Assembly: GCA_965222605.1 (NCBI GenBank)
Contig: OZ244960.1
Coordinates: 4,000,001 to 4,064,000, forward strand
Length of the DNA stretch: 64,000 bases
From: Candidatus Latescibacterota bacterium
GTDB taxonomy: Bacteria; Latescibacterota; UBA2968
Direction: 5' to 3'
Part shown: positions 22,782 to 39,700 of the stretch, in pieces
Numbering within the stretch: the stretch's first letter is position 1
How the letters are laid out: every line of letters begins with the position of its first letter
Program-made: the position numbers and the translations under genes
The notes under the pieces: model-generated
Seen by the model: the letters and a program-made list of their open reading frames with translations, nothing else
Told to the model about the DNA's origin: nothing
The model's database searches: none

Positions 22782-24569
22782 TCACTTCTTACCTGTCTTT
22801 AAGTTTTCATCATTATATGTGACATAGAGAAATGCGGTACACATTTCATCGGTTGATTTTTCACCCCATCGCACCAGCCGGGGCGGATTGTTGGGGTTTC
22901 GGGGGTTGTCGGCAGAGTTGTCGTAAAAAGCTTCGAGCGCGATGCGGGTGCCGCGCGGGAGTGCAATGGGTGTTTTGTACACGTAGGTTTCTTGCCAGTT
23001 GAAGTCCCAGGGTTTGACCCATATTAAGGGTTTGTGCGTGCCGTCGGGATAGGTCGCGGTTATTTTCATTTCTGTGCCGAGCAGGTGCATGTGGGGCAAG
23101 ATGCCGAGCAGGTGCTGGTCGCGGGTGATGGTGATTGAGCCGGTTACTCTGTGTTGTTTGATGTTGGGCGGGATGAAAAGCAAACGGCTGTTGATGACTT
23201 CTTCTCTGAGCTGTTTTTGAACGGGTTTTTTTGCAAAGTAGATTCCCAGTCGAGAATGATCTTTTACGGCGCGACCAATTTTGTGGTAGTGGATCTGAAG
23301 AATGATGTCGCTGTTGGGCGGTAAATCGCGGCCTATGCCATCTGGAAGGACAAAGGGGGTGTTGCCGGGTGCCCAACCGCCCAGAGATTCGTAGATGGGT
23401 ACGCCAATGCCGCCAAAGCAAGGATATCCAGGCGAGGGTGCGTTTTCCTGTTGCAGACGCGCTTTGCCAGAGATATCGATGTACACGCTGACGTGGTGGA
23501 CGACTTCGCGTTCTCCAGGCAGTACTTCAATGGCCGATACGTAGTTGCCTGTGTCCTGTTTTGTGGGCAAGACAAAGCAGCGGTATTCGTCGCGGCCCGT
23601 GGCTTCGAGTGGATAGGGTGCTTCGGGTTCAAGGGTCAGGTCGGGCGTGCCCAGGGTCCAGCTTTTGGAAAATGCGATGGGTTCGGGGCGGTCTGCGGGA
23701 TTGCCCTGGGGCATGCCGCCGTTGACCCATTGCGCGAAGGTGTGGATTTCGGCGTCTGTGAGGCTGCGGGAATTTTTGAAGTCGCCGTATTCGGGACGCG
23801 CTTTCCAGGGTGGCATGATGCGAGCTTCAATGGAGTCGCGCATCTGATAGGCCCATGCGAGTACTTCTGTGTAGTCGAAAAAGGGCACGCGACCGATGCC
23901 GCCGGGGCGATGACAATTCTGGCAGCGGTTTTGCAGAAGGGGCAGGATATCGCGATAAAATGTTGGGGTCGAAGTGCCCGCCGCGGTTGTTGGCCGGGGT
24001 GTGCGTCTGATTTCACAGCCAAAACTGGGCAGGTTGGTGTTGTCGATTTCGCGGTTGGCGAGCAGTGCATCGAGGGCGTCCCACAAACCGCGCGAGGTCG
24101 TATCTTCGGGTATGCCCCAGCCGTTGTCGATTTCGCCCTTGTAGCGCAGGCGGCGTTGGGCGTCAAAGAGAAAGGCATGGGGGGTGTGTGTCGCGCCGAG
24201 GTGATCGGCGAGTTTGTTGTGCGGGTCGCGCAGGACAGCGAAGGGTACGGGGTTTTGGACGTAGTGTTTTTTGATGTCTTTGTCGGTTTCGTTAAAATTG
24301 GCATTTACAGATATCAGGTGTACGCCTCTGGGGGCATACTGATCGTGTATTTGTGTGCGGTGGATATCGTATTTTAGCGAGGCGGGGCAGACGACGGAGC
24401 TGAAGATGATGACGAGTGCGCGGTTCTGAGATAAATCACTGAGGGCAACGGGCGAGCCGTTGAGGTCGGCAAGGGTAAAATCATTGAGGGTATCGCCGAT
24501 CTGGAGGGGGGCTGCCCAGGGGTGAAGCGGGAGGGCGAGAAAGAGTGCGATGAAGAGAGGGCATTTCAT
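22782..24569 (-). CDS. Redoxin + c-type heme + copper type II monooxygenase-like fusion, exported
   Basis: AhpC/TSA fold with CPAS, ATHTP.AF, RY.G.ID; CQNCH; VVHH, QIHYH, HMH and DEMC motifs. Confidence 0.85.
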   Translation of the reverse strand: MKCPLFIALFLALPLHPWAAPLQIGDTLNDFTLADLNGSPVALSDLSQNRALVIIFSSVVCPASLKYDIHRTQIHDQYAPRGVHLISVNANFNETDKDIKKHYVQNPVPFAVLRDPHNKLADHLGATHTPHAFLFDAQRRLRYKGEIDNGWGIPEDTTSRGLWDALDALLANREIDNTNLPSFGCEIRRTPRPTTAAGTSTPTFYRDILPLLQNRCQNCHRPGGIGRVPFFDYTEVLAWAYQMRDSIEARIMPPWKARPEYGDFKNSRSLTDAEIHTFAQWVNGGMPQGNPADRPEPIAFSKSWTLGTPDLTLEPEAPYPLEATGRDEYRCFVLPTKQDTGNYVSAIEVLPGEREVVHHVSVYIDISGKARLQQENAPSPGYPCFGGIGVPIYESLGGWAPGNTPFVLPDGIGRDLPPNSDIILQIHYHKIGRAVKDHSRLGIYFAKKPVQKQLREEVINSRLLFIPPNIKQHRVTGSITITRDQHLLGILPHMHLLGTEMKITATYPDGTHKPLIWVKPWDFNWQETYVYKTPIALPRGTRIALEAFYDNSADNPRNPNNPPRLVRWGEKSTDEMCTAFLYVTYNDENLKTGKK

Positions 24570-24574
24570 GGTGA

Positions 24575-25294
24575 TCAGGTATTGCGTTTACGCAAGTAGT
24601 CGATGAGGAAGATGACGGTGATTAGTCCAAAAAATCCGGCGATTGATAGGGCGATATAGTGGCTTTCGTGTGGGAGCCGCCAGTATTGTATTATAGTAAA
24701 TATAAGGGTGGGGACAAAGAAGATAAGCGCGCCCATCAAGGCATATCCCGACTGTGTGGCGGGTTCGGGCTGAGGGGGCGTGCTTGGGGCGTGAGTCGTG
24801 GGCTGTTGCGGGGGTTGGGTCGGCTGAATGGTCGGGGGTGCCGCTTCGGGTGGTTTGACGCGGGCGAGCATTTCTATGACGCTTTTGCGATAGCTGTTGT
24901 CGGCAGAGGCATATACGCTCCAAAATGCCGCGATTTCTTCGGCACCCGTGCGGGTAAATTTCTTTTCGAGTGCGCGTTTTAGCTCAAGAGAAAGTTCGGC
25001 GGGTGCTTTTTTTTGATGTTTTCGAAGGTCGTCGAGAATATGCGTGAGGCTGGCGTCGTACCCGTGAATCCAGGGATAGGTGGCGTGTTGGAGCAATTTT
25101 TCATCGGAGTTTGCGCCGCCAAATTCACGGAGATATGCATCAATGAGTTTTTTTCGCCCGATTTTAGACCCTGCGCCGGGGAAGTGTTTTGCCCGCAATT
25201 TGCTGTCGCGTTGAAAGGGCAAATAGAGATGGTCGTGATCCGCTATTTCGAGGATGCGTTTGAATGCGTTGAGGAGTGTTTGGCGGTGGGACAT
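24575..25294 (-). CDS. Hypothetical protein, Pro/Gln linker and two C-terminal TM helices
   Basis: Open frame within a same-strand gene run; hydrophobic C-terminus. Confidence 0.7.
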   Translation of the reverse strand: MSHRQTLLNAFKRILEIADHDHLYLPFQRDSKLRAKHFPGAGSKIGRKKLIDAYLREFGGANSDEKLLQHATYPWIHGYDASLTHILDDLRKHQKKAPAELSLELKRALEKKFTRTGAEEIAAFWSVYASADNSYRKSVIEMLARVKPPEAAPPTIQPTQPPQQPTTHAPSTPPQPEPATQSGYALMGALIFFVPTLIFTIIQYWRLPHESHYIALSIAGFFGLITVIFLIDYLRKRNT

Positions 25295-25376
25295 GAAAAG
25301 CAACCACAGATGGACACGGATGAACACCGATGATCCCGCATGGGATTATATATGAAAGGAATGTATCCTGGGGTAT

Positions 25377-25456
25377 GTAGGGGCGATGCCCCTGTGCCCG
25401 CCCGTGTTGAAATAGGCTCCTCAGGAATAGGGACAACCACAGGGGGTTGTCCCTAC
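25377..25456. repeat. Inverted pair of GTAG-type REP-like palindromes (REPIN/BIME-like)
   Basis: GTAGGGGCGATGCCCCTGTGCCCGCCC on + and GTAGGGACAACCCCCTGTGGTTGTCCC on -. Confidence 0.75.
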
Positions 25457-25460
25457 TTTT

Positions 25461-26762
25461 TTAGTTGATTGTTTTTCCAAAGTTCGAGACAAACATGAGA
25501 AAGTCGGGGAAATCTACTGTGCCGGATCCGTCGAGATCAAAGGTCGTATTGGCCGTGCCAAAGGCGCCTACGAACAAGAGGAAGTCCTGAAAGTCAATGG
25601 TACTCGAGCCATCGAAGTCGGTGCGTGGATCAGCGGGGATGAAGATGGCTGATCCGGTGATGGTCAGACTGATTGAGGCTTTTTCTGGGTCGTCTGAGAT
25701 TATGTCGATGGTACCGGTAATTGGTCCTTCGGCTGGTGGATTGAAAGTCACTGTGATATTCTGGGATTGGCCGGGTGGCACTGTAAGCGAGGTTTCTGAA
25801 AATGCAATGCCCGCGATGTTGGATTGGATGTCTGTGATGGTGAGCGGACCTGAGCCGCTATTTGTGATAGTGAATGTTGTTGTGACTTCCCGGCCCACTT
25901 GGATTTCACCGAGGCTCAAGTTTTCCTGAATTAGTGAAATGACCGGGAGTTGGGGTGCTTCAATGGTGAGATTGATAAAGGGGATTTCCAGGGTGCCAAC
26001 ACTTTGTTCGCCGTGTTGGAGGGTGATTTTACCCGAGAATGTGCCGGCCTGTGTTGGTGTCAGAGTGATTTGTACGGTTTTGCTTTCGCCGGGAGCTATG
26101 GTCAGTGTGGATGGCTCCATTGTGATGCCTTCGGGAGCCGAGTATCCGGTGATTTCGAGGGGTCCTGCGCCGGTGTTTTCGATCTTAAATTCTACGGTTT
26201 TGGACTGCCCTACTTCAAGGGTTCTGCCAAAGTAAAGCTCTCGTGGAAATAGGGCAATAACGGGCGTTTTGTTGAGAAGTGCGTCGATTTGCACGTTGAT
26301 CTGGGTATGAGAGCCGGGGGCGATTGCAGTGGTTTTAAGGCGCAGGATGCCTCCCTGGTCAATGACGAGGATATCTTCGTTACGGGTGCCGAGGTTTCTG
26401 GAGACGCCAGAGGCATTTGTGAGCATGGGCGTCGTTACCGTGGATCGTGTTATATAGGATTGGACTTGTGCGCGGTTGCCATCGTATCTGTCGAGTGTGA
26501 GGATCTGTACGCCGGCTTTGTCTTTGTTGGGTTGGTAAATATCTTTTTCGAAGTCGGGCCCTGCCCCTATGCAAGTTCCTCAGTTGTAGCCGACAAAAAA
26601 GAGGACGGAGACCGTGTTGTTCGAATGGCTGACGCCGTAAAACCTGCCATCGGTGGCCTGGAGTTGAAATTCGTTTATTTTTTCCCCAAGGTTGGACTGG
26701 GCAAAAGCGGTTGTGCATAAGCACAAAAATAGGGCGAGAGAGAAAAATCGCAGGTGTTTCAT
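25461..26762 (-). CDS. Exported UxxC redoxin + two Ig-like (ASH/choice-of-anchor D-like) domains + dockerin-like EF-hand pair; probable selenoprotein (TGA at 26582-26580)
   Basis: GGAGG RBS, signal peptide, VLFFVGYN-U-GTC, frame stays open and joins the 321-aa ORF 26426-25461; C-terminal DFDGSSTIDFQDFL..F / DLDGSGTVDFPDFL..F. Confidence 0.88.
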
Positions 26763-26914
26763 GGTGTTCCTCCATAAGGTGATTGCTGATTGCCGATAGC
26801 TAATATACTAAATCGCGTTCAAAATGTCACGGGGTTTGCGCTTGATTTTGGGGTTTGGTTTATCTACATTGTGGAAACGTTTCGGCTATTTCGGGGTTCC
26901 CATTTTTTTCTTTT

Positions 26915-28048
26915 ATGTCTTTATCTCTAAATGACTTTGAATCTGTGGTTCAGCGTGCGATCGCGCACCGCGATGGTGGCGATTTAGAAGCGGCAGTTGC
27001 GGGTTTTGATGCGGCGATTGCGGTGTGTGATAGCGATCCCGTTGTGTTTGTTCATCGCGGGATTACTTATGGACAACTGGGGCAGTTTGATGCGGCGATT
27101 GCGGATTTTGACCGCGCAATCGCTCTGGCGCCGAATGATCCATGGGTGTGGAGTAATCGCGCGATTGCCTGCGGGTTGATGGGGCAGTTTGATGCGGCGA
27201 TAGATAGTTTTGGAAAGGCTGTTGCGCTCGATCCAGAAGATACGCAGACACTTGCGAGTCGGGGAGAAACCCTGCGCGAGATGGGGCGGTTTGAGGAGGC
27301 ACTGGGGGATCTCAACCGGGTTTTGGCGTTGGATGCAGATTATTTTGGCGCGTTGATCAGCCGCGGGCATGTGTTGATGCAATTGGGGCAATTCGATGCG
27401 GCTGCGGCCGATTTTGACCGGGCGATTGCAGTGGGCAATGGGCATCCGGATGCGTTTGCCGGACGGGCGGAGGTCTATCGACAAATGGGTGAAGCTGAGG
27501 CTGCGATGGAGATGTTTGGGCAGGCACTCGAGGCGATGCCCGATCATCTGGGTGCATTGATTGGGCGGGGCGAGGTGCTGCGAGAGTGCGATCAATTGGA
27601 GGACGCGTTTTTGGATTTCGATCGCGCACTCATTATCGCACCTGATGACCCGGATTTGTTGTCCGCGCGGGGTGATATGTTGCGGCAATTGGGGCGAAGT
27701 GCCGAAGCAATACGCGATTTTACACGGGCGCTGGAGATTTTTCCCGATCATCTGTGGGCGCTTATGGGGCGAGGCGTTGCGTTGCGAATGGACAATGATC
27801 CCGAGGCGTCACTGGTCGATTTTGATCGGGCGGTGATGCTGCAGAACGGAGATGCGTGGATTTGGGCAAATCGCGGGGAGTCCCGAAGGATGCTGGGGCA
27901 GTATGAGGCAGCGGTTTCAGATTTTACGCGGGCGTTGGATATTGATCCGGAAAATGGATGGGCACGAGAACTTCGCGCGGAGACGTTTCGGCAAATGGGG
28001 CGATTTGCCGAGGCGGTTGAAGATATGAATCGGGCACGGGCGCAATGA
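26915..28048 (+). CDS. Cytoplasmic all-TPR protein (about 11 repeats)
   Basis: Regular 34-aa RG....LG....A..DF.RAI.L.P units. Confidence 0.9.
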   Translation: MSLSLNDFESVVQRAIAHRDGGDLEAAVAGFDAAIAVCDSDPVVFVHRGITYGQLGQFDAAIADFDRAIALAPNDPWVWSNRAIACGLMGQFDAAIDSFGKAVALDPEDTQTLASRGETLREMGRFEEALGDLNRVLALDADYFGALISRGHVLMQLGQFDAAAADFDRAIAVGNGHPDAFAGRAEVYRQMGEAEAAMEMFGQALEAMPDHLGALIGRGEVLRECDQLEDAFLDFDRALIIAPDDPDLLSARGDMLRQLGRSAEAIRDFTRALEIFPDHLWALMGRGVALRMDNDPEASLVDFDRAVMLQNGDAWIWANRGESRRMLGQYEAAVSDFTRALDIDPENGWARELRAETFRQMGRFAEAVEDMNRARAQ

Positions 28049-29055
28049 GCGAGTCTCATCATATTGTTATTGCAGATCGCACGGTTCCGTTTGAGGAGAC
28101 CATTGCACAGTTTGGAGAAGCACTGTCCAAAAAGTGTCGGTTTCAAACGCGCGCACGGCGATTTTACGATACGGTGTGGATCGCCGATTGTTATACGGAT
28201 TACGTGCAGTCGGCGCTGTTTCGCAAATACGAAGGGCCGTTGATGGAGGGTATTGCGCTTCGCACGATGGGCAAAGGGCTTTCCAAACAGCAGGTGCTGG
28301 CTGGGGCGATGGCAGAGGCGGTCGAGCGCATTTCGTTTTTTGACGCGCTGGCAAGCGGGCGGGAGACTCCGATTTATGAGTTGACTTCCGGTGTCGAGCT
28401 CGTGCTGACCGATATGAAGGCGTCGGATGTGCCACATTTGAATGATTCGGCAAATGGCGTCTCGGCGGGCAATACCGTGCTGGAGTGCGTGTTTCACGGT
28501 TTGCTGGAGATGCACGAGCACCTGGATGTGGGGAGGCATTTTTACTGGCCGGGATTGGAACATCGGCAATTTATCGATCCAAATTTGACGGGTTTTTTCC
28601 CTCGTGTCGCAGAGAAGATGCTGGCTGTGGCAGTGCCGGGGGAAAATGAGAAGGTGACGACGGTTCACGCGGTGGTGTGTCCCAAAGATTTGGGATCTCT
28701 GGTGCGTACGTGTACGCATTTGGATGGTCGCGTGGCGTTGCAGCGGGCGTTTAATGAGACTGTTCAGAGTCACAAAACGCGGTTTGTATCTGATTTGCAG
28801 ACTTTTGGTGCCGAGATTGCGCTGTGGGATTTGCCCAATCATTTTACGGATGATTTGATAACCGATATTCAGGTGGTGTTGAGCGGTATGAAATCTTCGG
28901 TTTATGTGCAAGATTGGACAGATCCAGAGATGCAAATTCCGGTGTTGCGACCATTTAGTTTAAAGACTGCAGAACACGAGCGGAACCACGCGATGATCGA
29001 GACGTATGTGCATCGCATTATGGTGGATTCGGGCAATTATATTGTGTGGACGTGA
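28045..29055 (+). CDS. Compact YcaO-like protein
   Basis: GKG.S....AGAMAEAVER, SANGVSAGN......HGLLEMHE, H.D..VALQRAFNETVQ, D.TDP...IPV.R. Confidence 0.8.
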   Translation: MSESHHIVIADRTVPFEETIAQFGEALSKKCRFQTRARRFYDTVWIADCYTDYVQSALFRKYEGPLMEGIALRTMGKGLSKQQVLAGAMAEAVERISFFDALASGRETPIYELTSGVELVLTDMKASDVPHLNDSANGVSAGNTVLECVFHGLLEMHEHLDVGRHFYWPGLEHRQFIDPNLTGFFPRVAEKMLAVAVPGENEKVTTVHAVVCPKDLGSLVRTCTHLDGRVALQRAFNETVQSHKTRFVSDLQTFGAEIALWDLPNHFTDDLITDIQVVLSGMKSSVYVQDWTDPEMQIPVLRPFSLKTAEHERNHAMIETYVHRIMVDSGNYIVWT

Positions 29056-29912
29056 TGGAGAATGCAATGATACCAAAAACGGTTTATCGATTCGGCATTT
29101 TGGGACTTGTATTGACCATGGCTTGTAGCAAGGCGGCGGATCCAGAATATGTGGTTGAAGAATCCATTGTGGCGACGCCTGCGGGCACCGAGCATGTACA
29201 GGTTTTTGTTCCGGTCAGCACTTTTACGATGGGGTCGAGCGAGGGTCCTTCGAATGAGCGTCCGCCACACGAGGTGATGCTCGATGCATTTTATATCGAT
29301 AAATACGAGGTGACCAACGCACAGTATTTGGCTTATGTAGAGGCCACGGGAAGTGAACTTCCGCAGTACTTTCGAGTAGAGGGGTTTGACCAGCCCGATC
29401 AGCCAGCGGTGGGGGTTTTGTGGTCTCAGGCGCGGGATTATTGCCAGTGGGCAGGTTTGCAATTGCCGAGTGAAGCGCAGTGGGAGTTGGCCGCTGCGGG
29501 CATAGATGGGCGCGTGTTTCCCTGGGGTAATGAGCCTGCGAATGAATCGCTGTGCAATTTCAATTTTAGTACTGGTCCCATGCCTGTGGGCAGCTATCCA
29601 GATGGTGCAAGTCCTTATGGCGCGATGGATATGGCGGGCAATGTGTGGGAGTGGACGCTGGATGAATACCAGCATACGTATTACGCAAATAGCCCCAGGC
29701 ACAATCCGGTGAATTTAAAAAATTCAGGTATGGAAGATGGACCAGATCGCACGTTGCGCGGTGGGAGCTGGTTTTCGGCACAACCCAGTATCCGCGTGTT
29801 TGTGCGGAGTACGGTTTTGATTATGGAAGAGCAGGCTCTGTCGCGCGACGATTTTGATACCTATGAAATATTTGCCCATATTGGATTTCGGTGTGCGAGG
29901 GGAGAGCCTTAA
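29055..29912 (+). CDS. FGE-sulfatase/SUMF1-domain lipoprotein
   Basis: Lipobox-like TMAC; FTMGS, E.P.HEV, KYEVTN..Y, LPSEAQWE.AA, DMAGNVWEW, RGGSW, IGFRC. Confidence 0.9.
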   Translation: MENAMIPKTVYRFGILGLVLTMACSKAADPEYVVEESIVATPAGTEHVQVFVPVSTFTMGSSEGPSNERPPHEVMLDAFYIDKYEVTNAQYLAYVEATGSELPQYFRVEGFDQPDQPAVGVLWSQARDYCQWAGLQLPSEAQWELAAAGIDGRVFPWGNEPANESLCNFNFSTGPMPVGSYPDGASPYGAMDMAGNVWEWTLDEYQHTYYANSPRHNPVNLKNSGMEDGPDRTLRGGSWFSAQPSIRVFVRSTVLIMEEQALSRDDFDTYEIFAHIGFRCARGEP

Positions 29913-30044
29913 TCGCGATACTGCTATCGCCGATAGTTGAGGATTGTATTAAAAAAGCCAATTTCCATTGTCATCGCATTGGTGGCCGTTGCTCTTGTGG
30001 GGGGACGGTTTACATTTTTTATTGGCGCATCAACAGGACAGGTT

Positions 30045-32810
30045 ATGCGGTTTGGGAAATTTCACATTTTATGGGTGATTCTGGTGTTCGCGTCGTGCAA
30101 TCGAGAACGCGAGGTGCCCAATTTGGTGCGTGCTTCTGAGCCGGGGTTTACGGGGCTGGAACGGTGCGCGATTTGCCATACCGACAAGTATGCCGAGTGG
30201 CGGCAGAGTTTGCACAGTGTCGCTATGACTGTGCCGAGTGATTCGACGATTGTGGGCGATTTTGGCAATGTGTCCCATGTATATGGTGGTGTGCGTTCGC
30301 GCATGTTTCGCAGGGGCGATGCATATGATATGGAGACTGAGGGCGAGGATGGGCGCGTTGAGACTTATCGCGTGGATTACGCGATTGGCTGGCGGCAGCA
30401 TCAGGCTTATTTGACGGCTTTTCCCAATGGCCGGTGGCAGGTGTTGCCCCTGTACCACGATGGGGCGACAGATGATTGGGTCGATGCACAAGAAGGGGGT
30501 GTGGTGGAACAGTCGCGGCCTCTGGCAAATGAGGATTATTATTATTGGACGAATGCGGGACGCACGTGGAATTTTCACTGTTTTGATTGCCATGCCAGCC
30601 GGGTGCAAAAACATTACGATGTGGCGACCCATACTTATCGCACGACAGTGGGCAGTCTGAGTATTGATTGCGAGGCGTGCCATGGTCCGTCGGGCAAACA
30701 CGATGAGACGCGCGGGCAGGTCGATGCCCCGCTGCATTTGCTGTTATTGCGGTCGCTGGATAAGGAACGGTCTGTTGAGGTGTGTGCACAGTGTCATGCC
30801 GCCAAGGAAATTGTGGCAACCGGGTATTTGCCGGGTGAAAATTTTTACGATTATTATTCTCTGGTATTGCCAGATGATGAGGCGATCTTCTATCCCGATG
30901 GACAGCCCCGGGTTTATTTGTATCCCGCGGCATTGCATTTGATGAGTGCGTGTTATATTCAGGGCGAGTTGACGTGTGCGACATGCCACGACGCGCACGG
31001 AACAGCGCGCGATGTCGATCTGGTGGCGGATCGGAATGGCGTGGGGTTGTGCGAGACGTGTCATGGTGATATCGCAGCCGATCCGGTCGCGCATGGGCAT
31101 CACCGCGCGGGTAGTGTGGGCAATCAATGCGTGCAATGTCATATGCCGTATCACTATGTGACGGGCGAAAATTTGACGGATCACCGCATTGCCTCTCCTG
31201 CACCGGAAAATACGGTGGTCAATGGCGTGCCCAATGCGTGCAATCAGTGTCACGGCGACAAGTCCCCGCAATGGGCTTCTTCGTGGGCAAAGCAGTGGTA
31301 TGGCGATTATCAGCGCGAAATTGTGGCGCGTACAACGGCGATTGCCAATGCGCAACAGGGCAATGGTGCGGCGCCGTTGATGCAGTTGATAAATGACGGT
31401 ACTGAGAGTGCGGTGTGGCGCGCAACGGCTGCGTCTTTGCTGGGCGGATTGGGGGATGCGCGTGCGGTGCCAAGACTTGTTGAGGCGATGGATGACCCGC
31501 ACGCGATGGTGCGGATGAAAACCGCGATTTCGCTGGGGCGTTTGGGCGATGTGCGCGGTCTGCCCGCGCTTTTGGAGGCGTTGTCCGATTCGGCGCGCAT
31601 TGTGCGGGTGCAAGCGCCGTTCGCGCTGATGGATATTGGCTATTTGCCGGATGGTTCTGCTATGGGCGATGCGTTTCGCCGGGCACTTGAAGAGCATCGC
31701 GATGTGGTATATGGCGTGCAGGGCGACGATCCGGGTTTTCACGAGAGTTTGGGACAGGTCTATGAAGCGCAGGGGCGTTTTGAAGATGCAAGGCGGGAAT
31801 TTGAGATTGTTGCGAGACTCGATCCGCGGCATCCGGAGACTGCGGTAGATCTGGCGCGATTGGCGCGAAAACAGAAGCGTTTTGAACAGATGAGGGGGCG
31901 ACTGAAGGGGAAGGGCGATTTGATTTCTCGGTTGCGCGCAGGTGCATTGCTGTTGCATCATGGGCACTATGCAGATGCTGCGGCTGTTTTTGATGATGTG
32001 CGCGATGGTTCGCCCGTGTTGCATACCGCTGTGGGCAATGCGCGGTGGGGCAGTGGGGATCGCGCGGGTGCTATTGAAGCCTATCGCCGCGCGCTTGCTA
32101 TTGCGCCGGGATACAAGCCGGCGATTCGACAACTCGCGTTATTGGCGTTTTCGGCTGGGGATGGCGAGGTGCGCGATGATTATGAGTGGGACGAGATGCC
32201 GGTAGGCGATTGGGTAAAAAAAGGAATAGAGCACGCGCTATCGGGCGATTGGGCCTTGGCACGCGCGGCTTATGGCAGGGCGTTGGAAATGGAGGATGTG
32301 GGTACGGGATTATTTGGGTTGGGCAGGCGGGCGAGAGATGTGGGGATTGTAAAGTCGGATTCGGCTTTTGCTGTTGGGCACCGCGTCTATGTCCAGGGTG
32401 CGCTCGCAGATGCGTTGCCCCATTTTGAAGTTGCGAAAAAATACTTGGCCAACCGCGCTGATGTGTATGCGATGCAGGGGTTGATTCGCGCTGATTTGGG
32501 CGATTTGGAGATTGCGGAATTCCTTATGCTGGATGCGCTGATTGTCGATCCTTTTTATGTGCCCGCGCTTACTGTGTTGGGTACGGTTTTACAGGAGCGC
32601 GGCGATATCGAAGGTGCGCTGTCTGTGTATCGGCAAGCGTGGGTGTTGGATCCAGAAGCGCAGGGATTGGAGTTGTTTATGGGGCAGGCTTATGCCATAA
32701 GCGGGCAGCGAGATAGTGCGGTTGCGGTTTTGCGGCGCGTGATTGCGCGCGAGCCGGGCAATGCGCAGGTGCGCGATTTGTTGCGAGAATTGGAAGGGCG
32801 TGAATTGTGA
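30045..32810 (+). CDS. Octaheme cytochrome c + HEAT + TPR lipoprotein
   Basis: Eight CxxCH (CAICH, CFDCH, CEACH, CAQCH, CATCH, CETCH, CVQCH, CNQCH), HEAT-like DARAVP.L.EA..D..VR repeats, C-terminal TPRs. Confidence 0.88.
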   Translation: MRFGKFHILWVILVFASCNREREVPNLVRASEPGFTGLERCAICHTDKYAEWRQSLHSVAMTVPSDSTIVGDFGNVSHVYGGVRSRMFRRGDAYDMETEGEDGRVETYRVDYAIGWRQHQAYLTAFPNGRWQVLPLYHDGATDDWVDAQEGGVVEQSRPLANEDYYYWTNAGRTWNFHCFDCHASRVQKHYDVATHTYRTTVGSLSIDCEACHGPSGKHDETRGQVDAPLHLLLLRSLDKERSVEVCAQCHAAKEIVATGYLPGENFYDYYSLVLPDDEAIFYPDGQPRVYLYPAALHLMSACYIQGELTCATCHDAHGTARDVDLVADRNGVGLCETCHGDIAADPVAHGHHRAGSVGNQCVQCHMPYHYVTGENLTDHRIASPAPENTVVNGVPNACNQCHGDKSPQWASSWAKQWYGDYQREIVARTTAIANAQQGNGAAPLMQLINDGTESAVWRATAASLLGGLGDARAVPRLVEAMDDPHAMVRMKTAISLGRLGDVRGLPALLEALSDSARIVRVQAPFALMDIGYLPDGSAMGDAFRRALEEHRDVVYGVQGDDPGFHESLGQVYEAQGRFEDARREFEIVARLDPRHPETAVDLARLARKQKRFEQMRGRLKGKGDLISRLRAGALLLHHGHYADAAAVFDDVRDGSPVLHTAVGNARWGSGDRAGAIEAYRRALAIAPGYKPAIRQLALLAFSAGDGEVRDDYEWDEMPVGDWVKKGIEHALSGDWALARAAYGRALEMEDVGTGLFGLGRRARDVGIVKSDSAFAVGHRVYVQGALADALPHFEVAKKYLANRADVYAMQGLIRADLGDLEIAEFLMLDALIVDPFYVPALTVLGTVLQERGDIEGALSVYRQAWVLDPEAQGLELFMGQAYAISGQRDSAVAVLRRVIAREPGNAQVRDLLRELEGREL

Positions 32811-34018
32811 AGGTCTGGATGAAAATTGTTGGTATTGGCGTGCTGGTATTGGGTTGTGTCTGGGGTGTGTTTTATATGTTGCAGCCGGAAGAGGCAGTTC
32901 GGTTTGTTGCACATCCGGGTTTTTTGTGGCGCATCCAGAGTGACCAGTCGTGCGAAGGATGTCATCGGAATATCGATCCGGGCATGGACAAACAGTGGCG
33001 CGAGAGTGCCCATTTTCAGGCCAATGTGGGGTGTGCGGATTGTCACGGTGATAATCACGAGACGGTTTTTGCGGTTCGGGGACAGGTGTCGGCAGGTATG
33101 TGTGGCAAATGCCACGAAAAAGAGGTTGCGGCATTTGCAGAGAGCGGGCATGCCGATGCGGAATTGGCCGCGTTGTCGGATGCGCGTTTTTTGGCACAGT
33201 CGCGCGCGATGCAAGAAGAGGGGTGTATGGGGTGTCACAGTATTGGTGCCCGGTTTGCCGATGGCAGTGTGGGGGGGTGCAACACCTGTCATCCGAGTCA
33301 TGAATTTAGTGTTGCGTTTGCGCGAGAACCCGAGGCCTGTGAAGTTTGTCACGGGGGTCCGGACCATCCCGTGATGGAGGCGTATAAAACGAGTGTTCAC
33401 GGGGTATTGTACTATATGGATAGAGATGCCGAGAAATCGCCGAGTTGCGTGACGTGTCACATGCCCAATGGCGATCACGGGCATGTGGCAAATATCGGGT
33501 TGGGTGCGGTGTTTACGGGTGCGGTGCTCGAGGAGGATTTTTTGCCGCATCTGGCGATGAAGCGGCTGACAAAAGAGGCGTTTGAGGCGAATCGCAAAGC
33601 GATGTTGCAGGTGTGCGCGCCGTGTCATTCCAATCGGTTTTCTCGAGAGAGTCTCGAGCGCGCAGATGCGATTAAGCGCGAGGCAGACGCGCTGGTTGCA
33701 GAGTCTTATGCGTTGATTAAGGCATTGTACGATGAGGATGCGCTGGATCCCATGCCCGAGGACCGTCCGGCCAATCCGGTGGTTGGACACGCTTTTGAGC
33801 TGGGCGGACAGCAGTTGTACGAAAACACATCGGAGATTGAACAGGCGTTTTTCAGGTTGTTCAAGTTTTATCACGCGACCACGTTTAAGGCGGCGTATCA
33901 CCATTCGCCAGATTATACGCATTGGGAGGGTATTGTGCGGATGAAGATGGAGATGGATAAAATCCGCACGGAGGCAAGGCGGTTGCAAGCAGAGGCGAAA
34001 AAAGAAGACAGCGAATAA
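32807..34018 (+). CDS. Octaheme cytochrome c, hydroxylamine oxidoreductase-like
   Basis: Eight CxxCH; CNTCH.SHEFS..AREPEACEVCH.GPDHP; C-terminal HHSPDYTHWEG; N-terminal membrane anchor. Confidence 0.82.
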   Translation: MKVWMKIVGIGVLVLGCVWGVFYMLQPEEAVRFVAHPGFLWRIQSDQSCEGCHRNIDPGMDKQWRESAHFQANVGCADCHGDNHETVFAVRGQVSAGMCGKCHEKEVAAFAESGHADAELAALSDARFLAQSRAMQEEGCMGCHSIGARFADGSVGGCNTCHPSHEFSVAFAREPEACEVCHGGPDHPVMEAYKTSVHGVLYYMDRDAEKSPSCVTCHMPNGDHGHVANIGLGAVFTGAVLEEDFLPHLAMKRLTKEAFEANRKAMLQVCAPCHSNRFSRESLERADAIKREADALVAESYALIKALYDEDALDPMPEDRPANPVVGHAFELGGQQLYENTSEIEQAFFRLFKFYHATTFKAAYHHSPDYTHWEGIVRMKMEMDKIRTEARRLQAEAKKEDSE

Positions 34019-34020
34019 GC

Positions 34021-34088
34021 GGTGTACAACTGGTCGATGAACGGGTCTGGGGAACGACCCGTTGTACACCATTTCCAGACCAGTTCAT
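34021..34088. repeat. 34-bp hairpin element with an inverted copy nested in its loop
   Basis: Outer GGTGTAC-AACTGGTC-G[..]ATTTCCA-GACCAGTT-CAT; inner 34037-34070 is the reverse complement of GGTGTAC-AACGGGTC-GTTCCCCA-GACCCGTT-CAT. Confidence 0.85.
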
Positions 34089-34215
34089 TTGAGCTGCCTC
34101 ACGGATTAACACAGCACAGGCGCAGCCTACAATGGAGCGATTTTGACAGTGATAGAGGCGACCCAGGATTAGGTGTGTTCAGGGTCAATTTTGAGAAAGG
34201 CGATGAGGTTAGCCA

Positions 34216-35244
34216 ATGAAAAAAAAGCAAGTTACCATCAAGGACATTGCAAGAAAGTTGGGGATTTCGTTTTCAACAGTTTCACGGGCATTGTCTCCAC
34301 ATGCTTCGATAGTGGTGAAGACGCAGACCCGAGATCTGGTGCGACAAACAGCCGCCGCGATGGACTACAGTCCCAATTTGATAGCGCGGGGGATGGTGAT
34401 GGGGAAGACGGGTACCCTGGGTCTGCTGACCTACCAGATTTCCCGGGAGACGTCTGGACGTCAGATCGACCAGATCCTGAGGATGGCTGACAAGCAGAAT
34501 TATCAGATTTTGTTGAGAATGGCCGCTCATCGAACGCCTCTATCTCCGATGGACGACCAGGTCATACAGATCAAGCAGTTGATTTCAAGGGGCATAGACG
34601 GACTCTTGATTAACACACGGGGCGATGGAGAAGAGTCAGAGCGCATTTTGAACATCGTGAGGGGACAAGTGCCAGTGGTGACCTTTCACTACCCGACTCA
34701 CAACCTGAGCGGGGTTGTGCTGGACCTGGTAGCAGATTTTTACGCGGCCACAGAGCATTTGATCGAGTTGGGTCACGAGCGGATCGGGTTTATCGGACCG
34801 GACTGGGATGAGACCAGTCCGGTTTCAGCCAAGGGTAAGGGGTATTTTCTGGCGATGCAAAAGCACGGCCTGACGCCTGAATTCTTACCTGCCCTGGGCA
34901 TCTATGCAGAAGGGGGGTATATCCAGAGCAAAAGGCTCGGTGACCGGTTTACGGCCCTTTTGTGCCGGGACGATTATACAGCGATAGGCGTTTGTAGAGG
35001 GCTACGGGAATTGGGTCTTCGCGTACCCGAGGATGTAGCCGTGGTGGGTCACGGGGATATTGACGTATCGGCTTATGTGACGCCATCACTGACCACACTG
35101 GTAACGCCTTACGAGGCGATTGCCCAGGCTGCGATGGATCTGATGCTGGAACAACTTCAGGGGCAAGATGAGCCTCGGCAAGTGACCTTGAGATCGCATC
35201 TAATCGTGCGGGAATCCTGTGGAACGAACAAAAGTGAAGAATGA
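34216..35244 (+). CDS. LacI-family transcriptional regulator (copy 1)
   Basis: VTIKDIARKLGISFSTVSRAL HTH, YSPN..AR hinge, VPEDVAVVG, PSLTT. Confidence 0.95.
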   Translation: MKKKQVTIKDIARKLGISFSTVSRALSPHASIVVKTQTRDLVRQTAAAMDYSPNLIARGMVMGKTGTLGLLTYQISRETSGRQIDQILRMADKQNYQILLRMAAHRTPLSPMDDQVIQIKQLISRGIDGLLINTRGDGEESERILNIVRGQVPVVTFHYPTHNLSGVVLDLVADFYAATEHLIELGHERIGFIGPDWDETSPVSAKGKGYFLAMQKHGLTPEFLPALGIYAEGGYIQSKRLGDRFTALLCRDDYTAIGVCRGLRELGLRVPEDVAVVGHGDIDVSAYVTPSLTTLVTPYEAIAQAAMDLMLEQLQGQDEPRQVTLRSHLIVRESCGTNKSEE

Positions 35245-35533: not shown

Positions 35534-36562
35534 ATGAAAAAGAGGCAAGTTACCATCAAGGACATTGCAAGGAAGTTGGGGATTTCGTATTCAACAGTCT
35601 CAAGGGCATTGTCTCCGCATGCGTCGATAGTGGTGAAGACGCAGACCCGAGATCTGGTGCGACAAACAGCCGCCGATATGGACTACAGTCCCAATTTGAT
35701 GGCGCGGGGGGTTGTGACAGGGAAGGCGGGCACACTGGGTCTGCTGACCTACCATATTGCTTTGGAGACGTTTGGACATCAGACCGACCAGATTCTGCGA
35801 GCGGCTGACAAGTGGGATTATCAGATTATGCTGAGAATGGCCGCTAACCGGCTTCCTCAGGATCTACTTGACGACCAAACCTTGCAGATCAGGCAGTTGA
35901 TTTCTCGTGGCATAGATGGACTCTTGATTCACACGCGGGGCGATGAAGAAGAATCAGAGCGCATTTTGAACATCGTGAGAGGACAAGTGCCAGTGGTGAC
36001 CTTTCACTACCCGACTCACAACCTGAGCGGGGTTGTGCTGGACCTGGTAGCAGATTTTTACGAGGCTACAGAGCATTTGATCAAGTTGGGTCACGAGCAG
36101 ATCGGGTTTATCGGAAAGGACTGGAATCAGACCAGCCCGGTTTCATCCAAGGGTAAGGGGTATCTTTTAGCGATGCAAAAGCATAGCCTGACGCCCAAAC
36201 ACATACCTGACTCCACCATCTATGCAGAGGGAGGGTATCTCCTGGGCAAAGAACTCGGTGACCGGTTTACAGCCTTTGTGTGCCGGGACGATTATACAGC
36301 CATAGGCGTTTGTAGAGGGCTACAAGAATTGGGTCTGCGCGTACCCGATGATGTGGCTGTAGTGGGTCACGGAGATATTGACGTGGCGGCTTATATGATG
36401 CCAGCGTTGACGACACTGGTAACTCCTTACGAGGCGATTGCCCAAGCTGCGATGGATTTGATGCTGGAACAGCTCGACGGACAGAATACGTCTCGGCAAG
36501 TGACCTTGAGATCGCATCTAATCGTGCGGGAATCCTGTGGGGCGAACAAAGGTGAAAAATGA
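35534..36562 (+). CDS. LacI-family transcriptional regulator (copy 2)
   Basis: Same motifs as copy 1, close paralogue. Confidence 0.95.
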   Translation: MKKRQVTIKDIARKLGISYSTVSRALSPHASIVVKTQTRDLVRQTAADMDYSPNLMARGVVTGKAGTLGLLTYHIALETFGHQTDQILRAADKWDYQIMLRMAANRLPQDLLDDQTLQIRQLISRGIDGLLIHTRGDEEESERILNIVRGQVPVVTFHYPTHNLSGVVLDLVADFYEATEHLIKLGHEQIGFIGKDWNQTSPVSSKGKGYLLAMQKHSLTPKHIPDSTIYAEGGYLLGKELGDRFTAFVCRDDYTAIGVCRGLQELGLRVPDDVAVVGHGDIDVAAYMMPALTTLVTPYEAIAQAAMDLMLEQLDGQNTSRQVTLRSHLIVRESCGANKGEK

Positions 36563-36775: not shown

Positions 36776-39700
36776 ATGCAGAAATTACTACTTCGCAGAC
36801 GATCTGCCTATGCCTCGATTTTTGCAGTTACACTCGCCGTCCTATTGATTCAATCGTTTTCTCCTTCCTCACAGACCAGTAGTTTTTCTCTTTCTCTGGA
36901 TTTGGATGAGGCTGTGGGCGGTCAGGCCATGCACTCTCTCAATGTATCTCCCGATCAGGATGTTTCCATTCAGATTTTTGGTACAGATATCCAAAATGCG
37001 AGCGATCTTTCTGTTCGTATTGAATACGATGCCACTCAGGTTGTTTACGAAGGGTTTGATACAGGTGATGTGTTGCCCAATGTCCGGGTCCAGAAAGGGG
37101 ATTCAACTGCCGTTTCACGCACGCCGGGACAAGCGAGCTTTGTCCAGATCAACCTGGCGTCTTTGGGTGGCTCTGCAACAGTCAACAGCGGTCTGATGGG
37201 TACACTGCGTTTTTTGACCACGGATGCGTTTTTGGGCACAGAGATTCGGTTGGTGCGTGCTGAGCTTGGCCGGGGGGAACAATCTGAGGCAGTGCCTCTA
37301 TCCCTCAGTGTTGCCCTACGGGTCGCTGCAGCCTCTTCCCCAGACTTTGACGGGAGTGGGACTGTAGATTTTCCCGACTTTTTGTTTTTAGTAAGTGTTT
37401 TTGGATCTCGACTTAACGATGGAAAGTACGAGACAAAGTACGATCTGGATGGCAATGGCGAAATTGCATTTGATGACTTCTTGATCTTTGTCAGTAGCTT
37501 TGGCAAGTCTGTTGACACCATTGACCAACCTTACGCTACTAAGCGTGTTGCTACCTCTTCTGATTTTCTCAGCGTCTGTGATCGCACCCCGCAAGTGCGC
37601 GACGCGATAGTAACGGCTCTCGGTGCAACAGATTGTGGGAGTGTCACAGAACAAGACTTGTCTAATCTAACGAATCGATTAGCGATATATGGCAGTTCGG
37701 AGAGTTCTATTTCGGCTTTGAAAGTTGGAGATTTTTCGGGACTGTCAGAGTTAAGACGTCTGAGGTTAATAAACAACAGTTTAACAACGCTTGACAACAA
37801 TGTTTTTGTGGGAATGTCGAAGTTAAAGACTTTGGAGGTTAGTGGAGGCGATATTTCAGATATTCATGCAGGGGCGTTTGGAGGATTGGATAGTCTTTCG
37901 GCCTTGTCATTAGAGGATAATAATATAACGAGTCTTCAGGACAATACTTTTGAGCCTTTGACAAAACTTAGGATTTTGAGGTTGAATAGCAACGATATTA
38001 CAAGTGTTTCATCTTTGCCTTTGGATGATTTGTCGGGGGTGCTAGTTCTTGATTTGTATCTTGCGTCCAATAAGATTGCGAGTCTCAGTTCAAGAGATTT
38101 TGCCGACGTTTCATCAAATTTGATTTTTTTAGATTTGCAAGGGAATAAGCTTTCCGCGTTACCAGACAGTCTTTTTTATAATATGGTAAATCTGCTAAAA
38201 TTGGATTTTCGGAGTAATAGTGTTGATCCTCTGAATATGCGAGTAAGCCTTGAGAGAATCCAAAATTCAGATAGGACTTCTGATAAGTTTTTTGCGAAGG
38301 TTCATACAGGCGCACCTTTCGATCTTAATGTTCCCGTTACAGTTTCTGGCGGAACGCTGGACGTTGATAATAATGTTGTGACGATTTCTGCCGGGTCTAT
38401 GAGCAGTTCTGTCGTGACCGCGACCAGGATTGATGCGACAGCGGATAACGATATTACTGTAACACTCGGAGACGTTCAAATTTCAATGGGAGACATTCAA
38501 AATACAAGTGATAGAAGAAGAGGTCTTGCGTTTGAAAAGGTCTCCAATTCAATAACATTGTCGCCGGAAGTTGTCGCAGTTTTTGTATTTGAGCCGAGTG
38601 TTACCTGGGGTAATGAACAGGTTTCTTTTGTGAGTGCAGATGCGTTTGGTGTGGAGGAAAACAGTTCTAATGTTGGCACTGTGTCTGCAAGGATTTATCG
38701 GAGGCCGTCGGAGTTCAAAGATTTGGGGGATATAACGGGTTTAACGTCGGGTAAGGGGTATTTTGAGAATAATGAGTCTCTCGGAGATGGGAATCATGAG
38801 AAGTATTATCGTTTTGTTTTGACCCAACCGAAGGTGCTAAATATTGGCTTGAGGCAGTTGGATGTTGACACTGATTTGATATTGGAGGATGCAGACGGTA
38901 GTGAGTTGCCTCTCGGAACGTCGAACGATCCTTCCGATCCTTCCAAGAAAAGGATAATAGTTTCTTTATGTGAAGGGACGTACTACGCTCATGTGAAGGT
39001 TAAGGATTTAGGGGAGAATGTATTTAATTTCCGTTATGGGATAGTGCCGGGCAGTCCGGATGCTTCTGAAGTTTCTCGGTTAAGGGGTCGGTCTATCGGT
39101 GGTGCAGTATCTGGTTATACTGTGTCTGGCGGTTCAGATGGGGATAAATTTTCTATCTCTGAGAGTGGTTTATTGACGTTTAATGATGTACCGAATTATG
39201 AGGATCCGCTGGATGTGGCGAGTACTTCTCCGTTAAATGATGCGGGTAATAATGAATATGTTGTGGTAGTGACGGGGCGCGGTGAAAGTAGTTCAGGAAC
39301 GCAGTCTATTGTTGTGACTGTTTCGGATAAGGATGACGAGGCACCGGGTCAACCTGCTGTGCCGACCGTAGCAGAGGCGACGTTGACGACGCTGAAAGTG
39401 ACGTGGGAAGTTCCTGCGAATACGGGACCTGAGATCACGGACTACGATGTGCAGTATAAGGCGAGTGGTGAGAGCGAATTTACCGATGCGGAATACGATG
39501 GCACGGATTTGACTTTGACGCTTACGGGCTTGAAACCGGGTACGAGTTATGAGGTGCAGGTGCGTGCAGAGAATGATGAAGGCTCAGGTGCGTGGTCTGA
39601 TTCGGGTAGTGGGATGACCATTGAGAATCAGGCTCCGGTGTTCACGAGCAATGCGACATTCGAGGTGAAAGAAAATAACACAACGGTTGGCGCAGTGTCC

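Follow-up and report, generated by a model that had tools for sequence, protein, structure and literature searches.

We analyzed a 64,000-nucleotide (nt) stretch of DNA from a Candidatus Latescibacterota bacterium (assembly GCA_965222605.1, contig OZ244960.1, positions 4,000,001 to 4,064,000; hereafter, the window), in which a gene at 28045-29055 on the plus strand encodes a bare YcaO domain of 336 amino acids (aa), named YcaO336. Our analysis revealed that YcaO336 is a genuine YcaO and that its locus represents a real, conserved, and isolated YcaO subfamily that has a tetratricopeptide repeat (TPR) protein as its partner in trans and lies in a gene context that is unusual and conserved. Overall, we favor, with a probability of about 0.4, the reading that YcaO336 is a TfuA-independent, protein-modifying YcaO that uses the TPR protein encoded directly upstream (TPR377; 26915-28048, plus strand) in trans, a thioamide being the likeliest product. 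The locus thereby offers a compact candidate for a further protein-directed YcaO, combining a conserved enzyme, an obligatory TPR protein in trans, a lack of machinery for ribosomally synthesized and post-translationally modified peptides (RiPPs), and only a few co-conserved candidate clients.

Family membership, fold, and catalytic residues of YcaO336

The Pfam model PF02624 matched YcaO336 with 51.7 bits (cut-off 25.7; E = 1.1e-13), the aligned part being confined to residues 130-246. A profile built from 22 members of the family extended the match, with M. jannaschii MJ1094 (6pe3) as the top PDB entry (E = 1.5e-6) in three stretches spanning residues 16-285, followed by weaker matches to TruD, LynD, MusD, and E. 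coli YcaO. The AlphaFold2 (AF2) model of YcaO336 had a predicted TM-score (pTM) of 0.75 and a predicted local distance difference test score (pLDDT) of 66.8, a moderate value. Foldseek searches with this model returned 39 PDB matches at E ≤ 0.001, and all of those listed were YcaO enzymes; the thioamide-forming YcaOs of M. kandleri (6cib/6ci7; top E = 8.2e-9) and M. jannaschii came first (E ~1e-8; TM 0.58-0.59; probability 1.00), and LynD and TruD were also paired with the model (E ~1e-7). At the level of NCBIfam, the best match was the McrA-glycine thioamidation family TIGR03266, at 36.9 bits and far under its cut-off of 365 bits, whereas NF040716, which describes the E. coli-type YcaO, gave 16.3 bits against a cut-off of 700.

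Conservation of the active-site residues pointed in the same direction. G76-K-G78, E91, E94, R95, N143, E147, E155, E158, H159, R234, and E238 showed no variation among the 22 members, whose identity reaches down to 57%, and in an alignment with distant YcaOs every one of these positions apart from H159 coincided with a conserved position of the superfamily. The published ATP/Mg motif reads Sx6-7Ex3Qx3ExxER (PMC7774982), and the corresponding segment of YcaO336, S140-x6-E147-x3-H151-x3-E155-xx-E158-H159, agrees with it except that H151 replaces the Gln and H159 the last Arg. The upstream ExxER (E91-x2-E94-R95) is kept and invariant. A sequence-only reading of this DNA had proposed a true 336-aa YcaO with recognizable ATP-binding motifs, and the PF02624 score above the cut-off, the YcaO fold, and the invariant acidic ATP/Mg ligands bear this out. 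The same reading had singled out ExxEH in place of ExxER; the substitution is real (E155-M-H-E158-H159, invariant in 22/22 members), but it is not a unique departure, as distant YcaOs carry K or Q at the last position. Because of these K and Q residues, we read ExxEH as probably a variation rather than a disabling change. Judged by its residues, YcaO336 is very probably catalytically competent.

The description of YcaO336 as "miniature" holds in part. With 336 aa, it falls under the closest solved YcaOs (361-385 residues), but the Pfam model itself is 325 positions long and further YcaO-domain proteins measure 312-359 aa. According to the alignment with distant YcaOs, the small size results mainly from a missing insert between the two ATP-binding motifs. 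A Pro-rich C-terminal motif is the mark of an azoline-forming YcaO of the thiazole/oxazole-modified microcin (TOMM) type; YcaO336 ends in ...SGNYIVWT and the family consensus in YIDWE, so the reported lack of this motif was confirmed. Four cysteines (C49, C148, C212, and C223) were invariant in all 22 members and not present in the distant YcaOs aligned, and one of them, C148, adjoins the ATP-motif residue E147. These family-specific cysteines may constitute a metal-binding site or relay a persulfide. The isoelectric point (pI) of YcaO336 is 5.6, and the family is mildly acidic throughout (5.0-6.5).

Separately, some orthologues (at loci L002, L006, L008-L012, and L022 of the survey described below) carry a 27-nt tandem repeat near the YcaO N-terminus, with 2.9 copies in L011 (1982-2059), which adds 7 to 22 residues in units such as VFNHYGTS. 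The window copy is without this repeat.

An isolated YcaO clade and its conserved neighborhood

A word-indexed search of 5.8 billion proteins yielded 27 YcaO clusters, all at least 58% identical, and those with names belonged to Latescibacterota. When 1.84 billion representatives at 50% identity were searched exhaustively with a profile, a single full-length sequence and three fragments were recovered; the next match had an E-value of 5.8e-14, and the nearest YcaO relatives outside the family had no match among the NCBIfam equivalogs. An Atlas search with YcaO336 gave YcaO clusters only, probably including its own. The clade is therefore isolated, forming one 50%-identity cluster that comes nearly entirely from Latescibacterota. 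Our literature search found no published description of this subfamily, and no relevant link of YcaO with formylglycine, Latescibacter*, multiheme or octaheme proteins, selenocysteine, or hydroxylamine oxidoreductase. Scanning 185,579 species genomes revealed 25 loci, 23 from Latescibacterota, one labeled "Gemmatimonadetes," and one "uncultured bacterium." By YcaO identity to the window, these loci were divided into group A (at least 92%; 14 loci), group B (87-89%; L013, L014, L015, and L017), group C (80-83%; L016, L018, and L019), and group D (55-67%; L021, L024, L023, and L025, the last two from one metagenome-assembled genome).

TPR377 contains about 11 TPR repeats (Pfam TPR_1, E = 1.8e-68) and is a cytoplasmic, acidic protein (pI 4.4) with no signal peptide visible in its sequence; 14 orthologues had pI values of 4.4-5.3. 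Its gene shares the ATGA at 28045-28048 with the YcaO gene, whose start lies inside the TPR stop. Across the 25 genome loci, where gene presence was scored by tblastn with the window proteins and checked by open reading frame (ORF) listings, the TPR gene stood directly upstream of the YcaO gene in all 24 assessable cases, and the ORF calls overlapped the YcaO start in 22 of them. Co-folding of the YcaO alignment with the TPR alignment scored 0.00 in two runs, an outcome that carries no weight on whether the two proteins bind. Among proteins of 656-2000 aa, no fusion of TPR repeats to a YcaO of this family was seen, although this is weak evidence. We consider it somewhat more likely than not that TPR377 and YcaO336 act as a functional pair.

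The remaining genes of the neighborhood were preserved to varied degrees. Downstream on the plus strand, the window encodes an exported lipoprotein with the fold of formylglycine-generating enzyme (FGE)/SUMF1 (FGE288; from 29046 with a GTG start or 29055 with an ATG start to 29912), an octaheme c-type cytochrome with HEAT and TPR repeats, likely also a lipoprotein (cyt957; from 29937 with TTG or 30045 with ATG to 32810), and a short membrane-anchored octaheme cytochrome of the hydroxylamine-oxidoreductase (HAO) family (cyt403; 32807-34018). Divergent from the TPR gene, the minus strand carries a secreted selenocysteine (Sec) redoxin with immunoglobulin (Ig)-like domains (25461-26765) and an orphan membrane protein (hyp250; 24575-25294). 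hyp250 was present in 21/21 and the Ig part of the Sec-redoxin in 23/23 assessable loci; the FGE-like gene was found in 23/24 (missing in L014), the cyt957-like multiheme cytochrome in 21/24 (missing in L013, L014, and L017), and the cyt403-like gene in 16/23, in groups A and C only. Hence, hyp250, Sec-redoxin, TPR, and YcaO form a core that never separates, the FGE-like gene and the multiheme cytochrome are near-constant, and the HAO-like cytochrome is optional. The claim that homologues keep the linkage to TPR, FGE, and cytochrome genes thus stood for the first two and for the multiheme cytochrome, but not for the HAO-like one, which accompanies closer relatives only. Since linkage was kept and YcaO336 matched the YcaO model and structures, both of the findings whose lack would have spoken against the sequence-only reading were obtained.

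Group D provided the most distant view of the locus. There, the order is hyp250 (minus strand), TPR, YcaO, cytochrome, and FGE-like gene, with the Sec-redoxin on the other strand (inverted), and the same gene families still lie within ~8 kb despite the shuffled order and a YcaO identity of ~60%. Between the window and group D, YcaO was 59-67% identical, compared with 40-41% for TPR, 43-44% for the FGE-like protein, 36% for the cytochrome, 32-37% for hyp250, and 38-41% for the Ig protein, making YcaO the most conserved gene of the locus. In L017, a DDE-type transposase gene (12122-13015) follows the FGE-like gene, where other loci have the cytochromes; its position suggests that a rearrangement removed the cytochromes there.

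Search for partner genes and a precursor peptide

Pfam and NCBIfam scans covered 40 ORF calls of the window, several of which had no match at all, and parts of seven loci (L014, L017, L018, L021, L023, L024, and L025). These scans contained no TfuA, no ThiF/E1-like partner of the kind bearing a RiPP recognition element (RRE), no nitroreductase-type dehydrogenase, and no RiPP protease or transporter. Among ORFs of 20-120 aa located outside the large genes in 16 loci and the window, no candidate precursor was conserved across the four groups; the one small ORF that recurred across them corresponds to the part of the Sec-redoxin gene ahead of the TGA, encoding its N-terminus. The earlier remark that TfuA, E1-like partner, dehydrogenase, and precursor were not visible in the window therefore extends to the loci and ORFs covered here.

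Sulfur-related genes appeared in group D only, 5-8 kb upstream and on the same strand, where a DsrK-like Fe-S/CCG protein, a class-V aminotransferase of the cysteine-desulfurase family, and a DsrC-like protein are encoded in all three group D loci with upstream sequence (L023, 815-3783; L024, 106-3920; L021, 3-2299). The DsrC-like protein of L023 has two C-terminal cysteines spaced by ten residues, L024 also encodes a DsrM-like protein, and genes for an AhpC-type redoxin and a DUF6029 protein come next. It may be an adjacent but unrelated operon. Sulfur or selenium chemistry at this locus, which the sequence-only reading had considered conceivable, remains speculation, and the group D gene set is the sole added hint.

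Comparison with known YcaO systems

To our knowledge, the only YcaO protein substrates known are methyl-coenzyme M reductase (MCR) and ribosomal protein uL16. The TfuA-independent, McrA-glycine thioamidating YcaOs of methanogens (6cib/6ci7, 6pe3) are the best matches of YcaO336 by structure, by profile, and in NCBIfam, and they have in common with it a bare YcaO domain of comparable length (361-385 versus 336 residues), the lack of an adjacent TfuA, and, putatively for YcaO336, a protein substrate. YcaO336 differs from them in its low identity (15-18%), its bacterial origin without MCR, the missing insert between the two ATP-binding motifs, the His in place of the ExxER Arg, and the obligatorily adjacent TPR gene. 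A closer parallel to the TPR arrangement is offered by E. coli YcaO (EcYcaO), which a 2026 study showed to thioamidate uL16 with no TfuA involved; its 150-residue TPR domain mediates dimerization and may help substrate binding (PMC13063428). D. vulgaris DVU2210 is also a YcaO-TPR fusion, of unknown function (PMC7774982). Like these two proteins, YcaO336 is associated with TPR repeats and has neither TfuA nor a RiPP context, a folded-protein substrate being a feature of EcYcaO. In both, however, the TPR is a fused C-terminal domain of ~150 residues, whereas here it is a separate, upstream-encoded protein of 377 aa. YcaO336 further departs from the E. coli type in ending after the YcaO domain, in scoring far under the NF040716 cut-off, and in its pI of 5.6, as opposed to the 4.4 given for uL16-type YcaOs (PMC13063428). 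With the azoline-forming TOMM cyclodehydratases (LynD, TruD, and McbD; TIGR03604), it has the fold and the ATP-binding residues in common, but not an E1-like/RRE partner, a dehydrogenase, a precursor, or a Pro-rich C-terminus.

Proposed function and its alternatives

In the mechanism that we propose, TPR377 and YcaO336 would constitute a two-protein cytoplasmic enzyme. YcaO336 would bind ATP/Mg through its conserved glutamates and phosphorylate a backbone amide oxygen of the substrate, after which a nucleophile would displace the phosphate; a sulfide equivalent is the likeliest nucleophile, yielding a thioamide with no need for TfuA, in line with the enzymes of methanogens and E. coli. TPR377 may supply in trans the docking or dimerization role of the fused TPR domain in E. 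coli-type YcaOs; with EcYcaO and DVU2210 as precedents, the substrate-adaptor role that the sequence-only reading had suggested for the TPR protein is plausible. We would expect the substrate to be a conserved protein and not a RiPP precursor, which would evolve fast, with hyp250, Sec-redoxin, the FGE-like lipoprotein, and the multiheme cytochromes as candidate clients, modified in the cytoplasm before Sec-dependent export. Protein-substrate YcaOs are argued to diverge slowly and RiPP YcaOs fast (PMC13063428), and the high YcaO identity between the window and group D (59-67%), compared with 32-44% for the neighbors, is the pattern expected of a protein substrate. We therefore lean, slightly, toward a protein rather than a peptide as the substrate, and thioamide formation is our tentative choice of chemistry. 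The authors of the uL16 study expect further, still undiscovered YcaO protein substrates (PMC13063428).

Several points weigh against this reading. The structure model of YcaO336 is only of moderate confidence (pLDDT 66.8), its scores lie far under the cut-offs of both protein-modifying families (TIGR03266 and NF040716), and a His replaces the Arg of ExxER. All linkage data come from four related groups that belong, in essence, to a single phylum, and 14 of the 25 loci share at least 92% identity; part of the linkage can therefore be put down to inherited synteny. The set of DsrK-, desulfurase-, and DsrC-like genes was not found in groups A-C or in the 64-kb window, and the cytoplasmic domain of hyp250 is not consistently basic, offering no electrostatic match of the EcYcaO-uL16 kind. 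Locus L014 retains TPR-YcaO but neither the FGE-like gene nor a cytochrome, and cytochromes are also missing from L013 and L017; because of L014, the cytochromes cannot be regarded as obligatory partners. What is shown directly are the family membership, the fold, the intact catalytic residues, the conserved gene linkage, and, within the scans, the lack of the usual partners and of a precursor; that TPR377 binds YcaO336, that the substrate is a protein, which protein it is, and that a thioamide results are our inferences.

Some of these points, namely the loci without cytochromes and the origin of all loci from related lineages, together with the high conservation of YcaO relative to its neighbors, would also suit a TPR-YcaO enzyme that modifies a conserved cytoplasmic protein encoded elsewhere, for example, a ribosomal one, with the FGE-like, cytochrome, and redoxin genes being unrelated neighbors retained through inherited synteny. 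EcYcaO sets a precedent, as its substrate gene is not nearby (PMC13063428). A universal target, however, leaves unexplained why the family is limited to one lineage, with one 50% cluster in 1.84 billion representatives; the same gene families are still clustered after rearrangement at ~60% YcaO identity, and the YcaO is only mildly acidic (pI 5.0-6.5), unlike the uL16-type YcaOs at 4.4. We consider such a housekeeping target unlikely. Action on a short precursor, encoded elsewhere or missed, to form azolines or amidines is improbable. Most characterized YcaOs are indeed RiPP enzymes (PMC13063428), sponge-associated Latescibacterota have been reported to be rich in RiPP clusters (PMC9426513), and the Foldseek matches include LynD and TruD (E ~1e-7), but the scans held no E1-like/RRE partner, dehydrogenase, protease, or transporter, no small ORF was conserved, the Pro-rich C-terminus is lacking, and the slow divergence of the YcaO is the opposite of the RiPP pattern (PMC13063428).

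It is also conceivable, though we regard it as very improbable, that YcaO336 has no role in backbone modification and instead spends ATP on a small molecule or oxyanion, or serves as a non-catalytic assembly factor for exported metalloproteins. The neighborhood is full of metallo- and seleno-redox proteins, the four invariant cysteines are specific to the family, and DVU2210 has been proposed, as a hypothesis, to activate molybdate in a futile cycle (PMC7774982). Yet that idea is only a hypothesis, no YcaO is known to have a small-molecule substrate, and the full set of amide-activating residues is conserved here. Returning to the favored protein-modifying enzyme with a TPR protein in trans, its most novel form would be a third protein-directed YcaO class after MCR and uL16, one that installs a thioamide, or conceivably a selenoamide given the selenoprotein context, in an envelope redox protein before export, with the four invariant cysteines as a persulfide relay replacing TfuA/ThiS and the octaheme cytochromes, FGE-like lipoprotein, Sec-redoxin, and hyp250 as candidate targets; this elaboration is a long shot. 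Should the client prove to be an exported protein of the heme, seleno, or FGE-fold kind, this would represent the first YcaO backbone modification of a periplasmic redox enzyme and provide a handle on sulfur delivery without TfuA. If the linkage is inherited synteny only, the locus would add one more uncharacterized standalone YcaO.

The FGE-like lipoprotein and the octaheme cytochromes

FGE288 matched the FGE-sulfatase family PF03781 with 164.9 bits (E = 3.5e-48) and carries a lipobox (...LTMAC-S), the lipoprotein signal being kept in orthologues. The YcaO stop codon occupies 29053-29055, and the overlap with FGE288 amounts to 1-10 nt depending on the start (TGATG if ATG 29055 is used). Formylglycine-generating enzymes have a catalytic cysteine pair after the RGGS motif. 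In the alignment of FGE288 with the Streptomyces FGE 2q17, which stops at the segment RGGSWFS, a Ser takes the place of the Cys that 2q17 has behind RGGSYL, and the sequence beyond the RGGS motif contains no Cys pair. Thus, despite its FGE fold, FGE288 is probably not a formylglycine-generating enzyme, judging from these residues. Among named proteins, it comes closest to sulfoxide and selenoxide synthase domains and to the GldK/PorK lipoproteins.

FGE288 and cyt957 do not overlap, being separated by 24 nt if cyt957 starts at TTG 29937 and by 132 nt if it starts at ATG 30045, whereas cyt957 and cyt403 share GTGA at 32807-32810, given the GTG start. Read directly from the junctions (ATGA, 1-10 nt, and GTGA), the overlaps of the TPR, YcaO, and FGE genes and of the two octaheme cytochrome genes are as the sequence-only reading had described them. 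In cyt957, eight CxxCH motifs (counted by eye) precede the HEAT and TPR repeats; a script counted eight in the L001 orthologue as well, and the heme part gave a weak NrfA-like match. In cyt403, also with eight CxxCH motifs by eye, PF13447 scored 77.3 bits (cut-off 21.9; E = 1.6e-21), and the best PDB match was the anammox HOX 4n4j (E = 6.4e-32), aligned up to chain residue 440 of 500. The cross-linking Tyr of hydroxylamine oxidoreductase is at a C-terminal position. As cyt403 stops ~60 residues before the HOX chain end and has a 7-residue tail without Tyr, the Tyr cross-link known from oxidative HAOs is probably missing. An HAO that reduces nitrite and has no such cross-link has been published (PMC8042395), and cyt403 resembles such reductive HAO-family octahemes in its PF13447 match, eight CxxCH motifs, and anammox HOX/HAO-like PDB relatives. 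It differs from them in its length of only 403 aa, its N-terminal membrane anchor, and its lack of conservation in distant loci.

The Sec-redoxin, hyp250, and other minus-strand genes

Reading the TGA at 26582-26580 (minus strand) as Sec joins two table-11 ORFs into one 434-aa frame with a signal peptide and the motif U-G-T-C, in agreement with the divergent Sec redoxin proposed in the sequence-only reading. The protein consists of the signal peptide, an AhpC/TSA-type redoxin (27.6 bits; cut-off 26), two Ig-like (choice-of-anchor D) domains, and a dockerin/EF-hand tail. The Sec codon was checked in the window and in the distant L021, whose orthologue has G-H-N-U-G-A-C. The hairpin after the TGA was no more stable than shuffled sequences (z = 0.01) and had no Rfam match. 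A further ORF call, orf131 (26380-26775, minus strand; 131 aa), was rejected as an off-frame shadow of the Sec-redoxin gene.

Beyond the Sec-redoxin, the minus strand encodes hyp250, an exported protein combining a redoxin, a CxxCH motif, and a domain like that of peptidylglycine α-hydroxylating monooxygenase (PHM) (22782-24569), and a second TPR protein. hyp250 comprises a helical cytoplasmic domain (residues 1-144), then a linker rich in Pro, and at the C-terminus a membrane hairpin of two helices, and the AF2 model was confident and all-helical with the membrane hairpin (pLDDT 86.2). Searches gave no clue to its function, with no Pfam match, no Atlas match, and no PDB fold match (best E = 1.7). 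The protein occurred in 87 clusters that, where named, were Latescibacterota, Gemmatimonadota, or plain "bacterium," a narrow lineage like that of the YcaO. Its loop F38-P-G-A-G42 was conserved in 25 sequences, with F38 and G40 invariant. A charge match between the acidic TPR protein and a basic hyp250 was considered and discarded; the pI is 9.6 in the window, but the cytoplasmic domain of the orthologues ranges from 5.5 to 9.6 with a median of 7.1 (n = 25). The PHM-like protein (Pfam AhpC-TSA, Cu2_monoox_C, and Cu2_monooxygen) shows a single visible heme motif, CQNCH, together with the redoxin and a copper-monooxygenase domain resembling PHM and dopamine β-hydroxylase (DBH). Its gene occurred in 18 loci, beside hyp250 in groups A-C, and was not found in L021, L023, and L024.

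Other features of the window

Promoter and terminator scans of 24400-34400 gave sites no more numerous than in shuffled sequence, and an Rfam scan of the window returned no match. Just downstream of the cytochromes lie two tandem LacI-family regulator genes (34216-35244 and 35534-36562, plus strand), 82% identical over all 342 residues, followed by a gene for a giant secreted protein of 2904 aa (36776-45490, plus strand) with many internal repeats and a dockerin-like segment, as judged by eye. GC skew was positive (0.07 to 0.32) in 32 of the 32 2-kb segments of the window (1-64000), including the regions of minus-strand genes.

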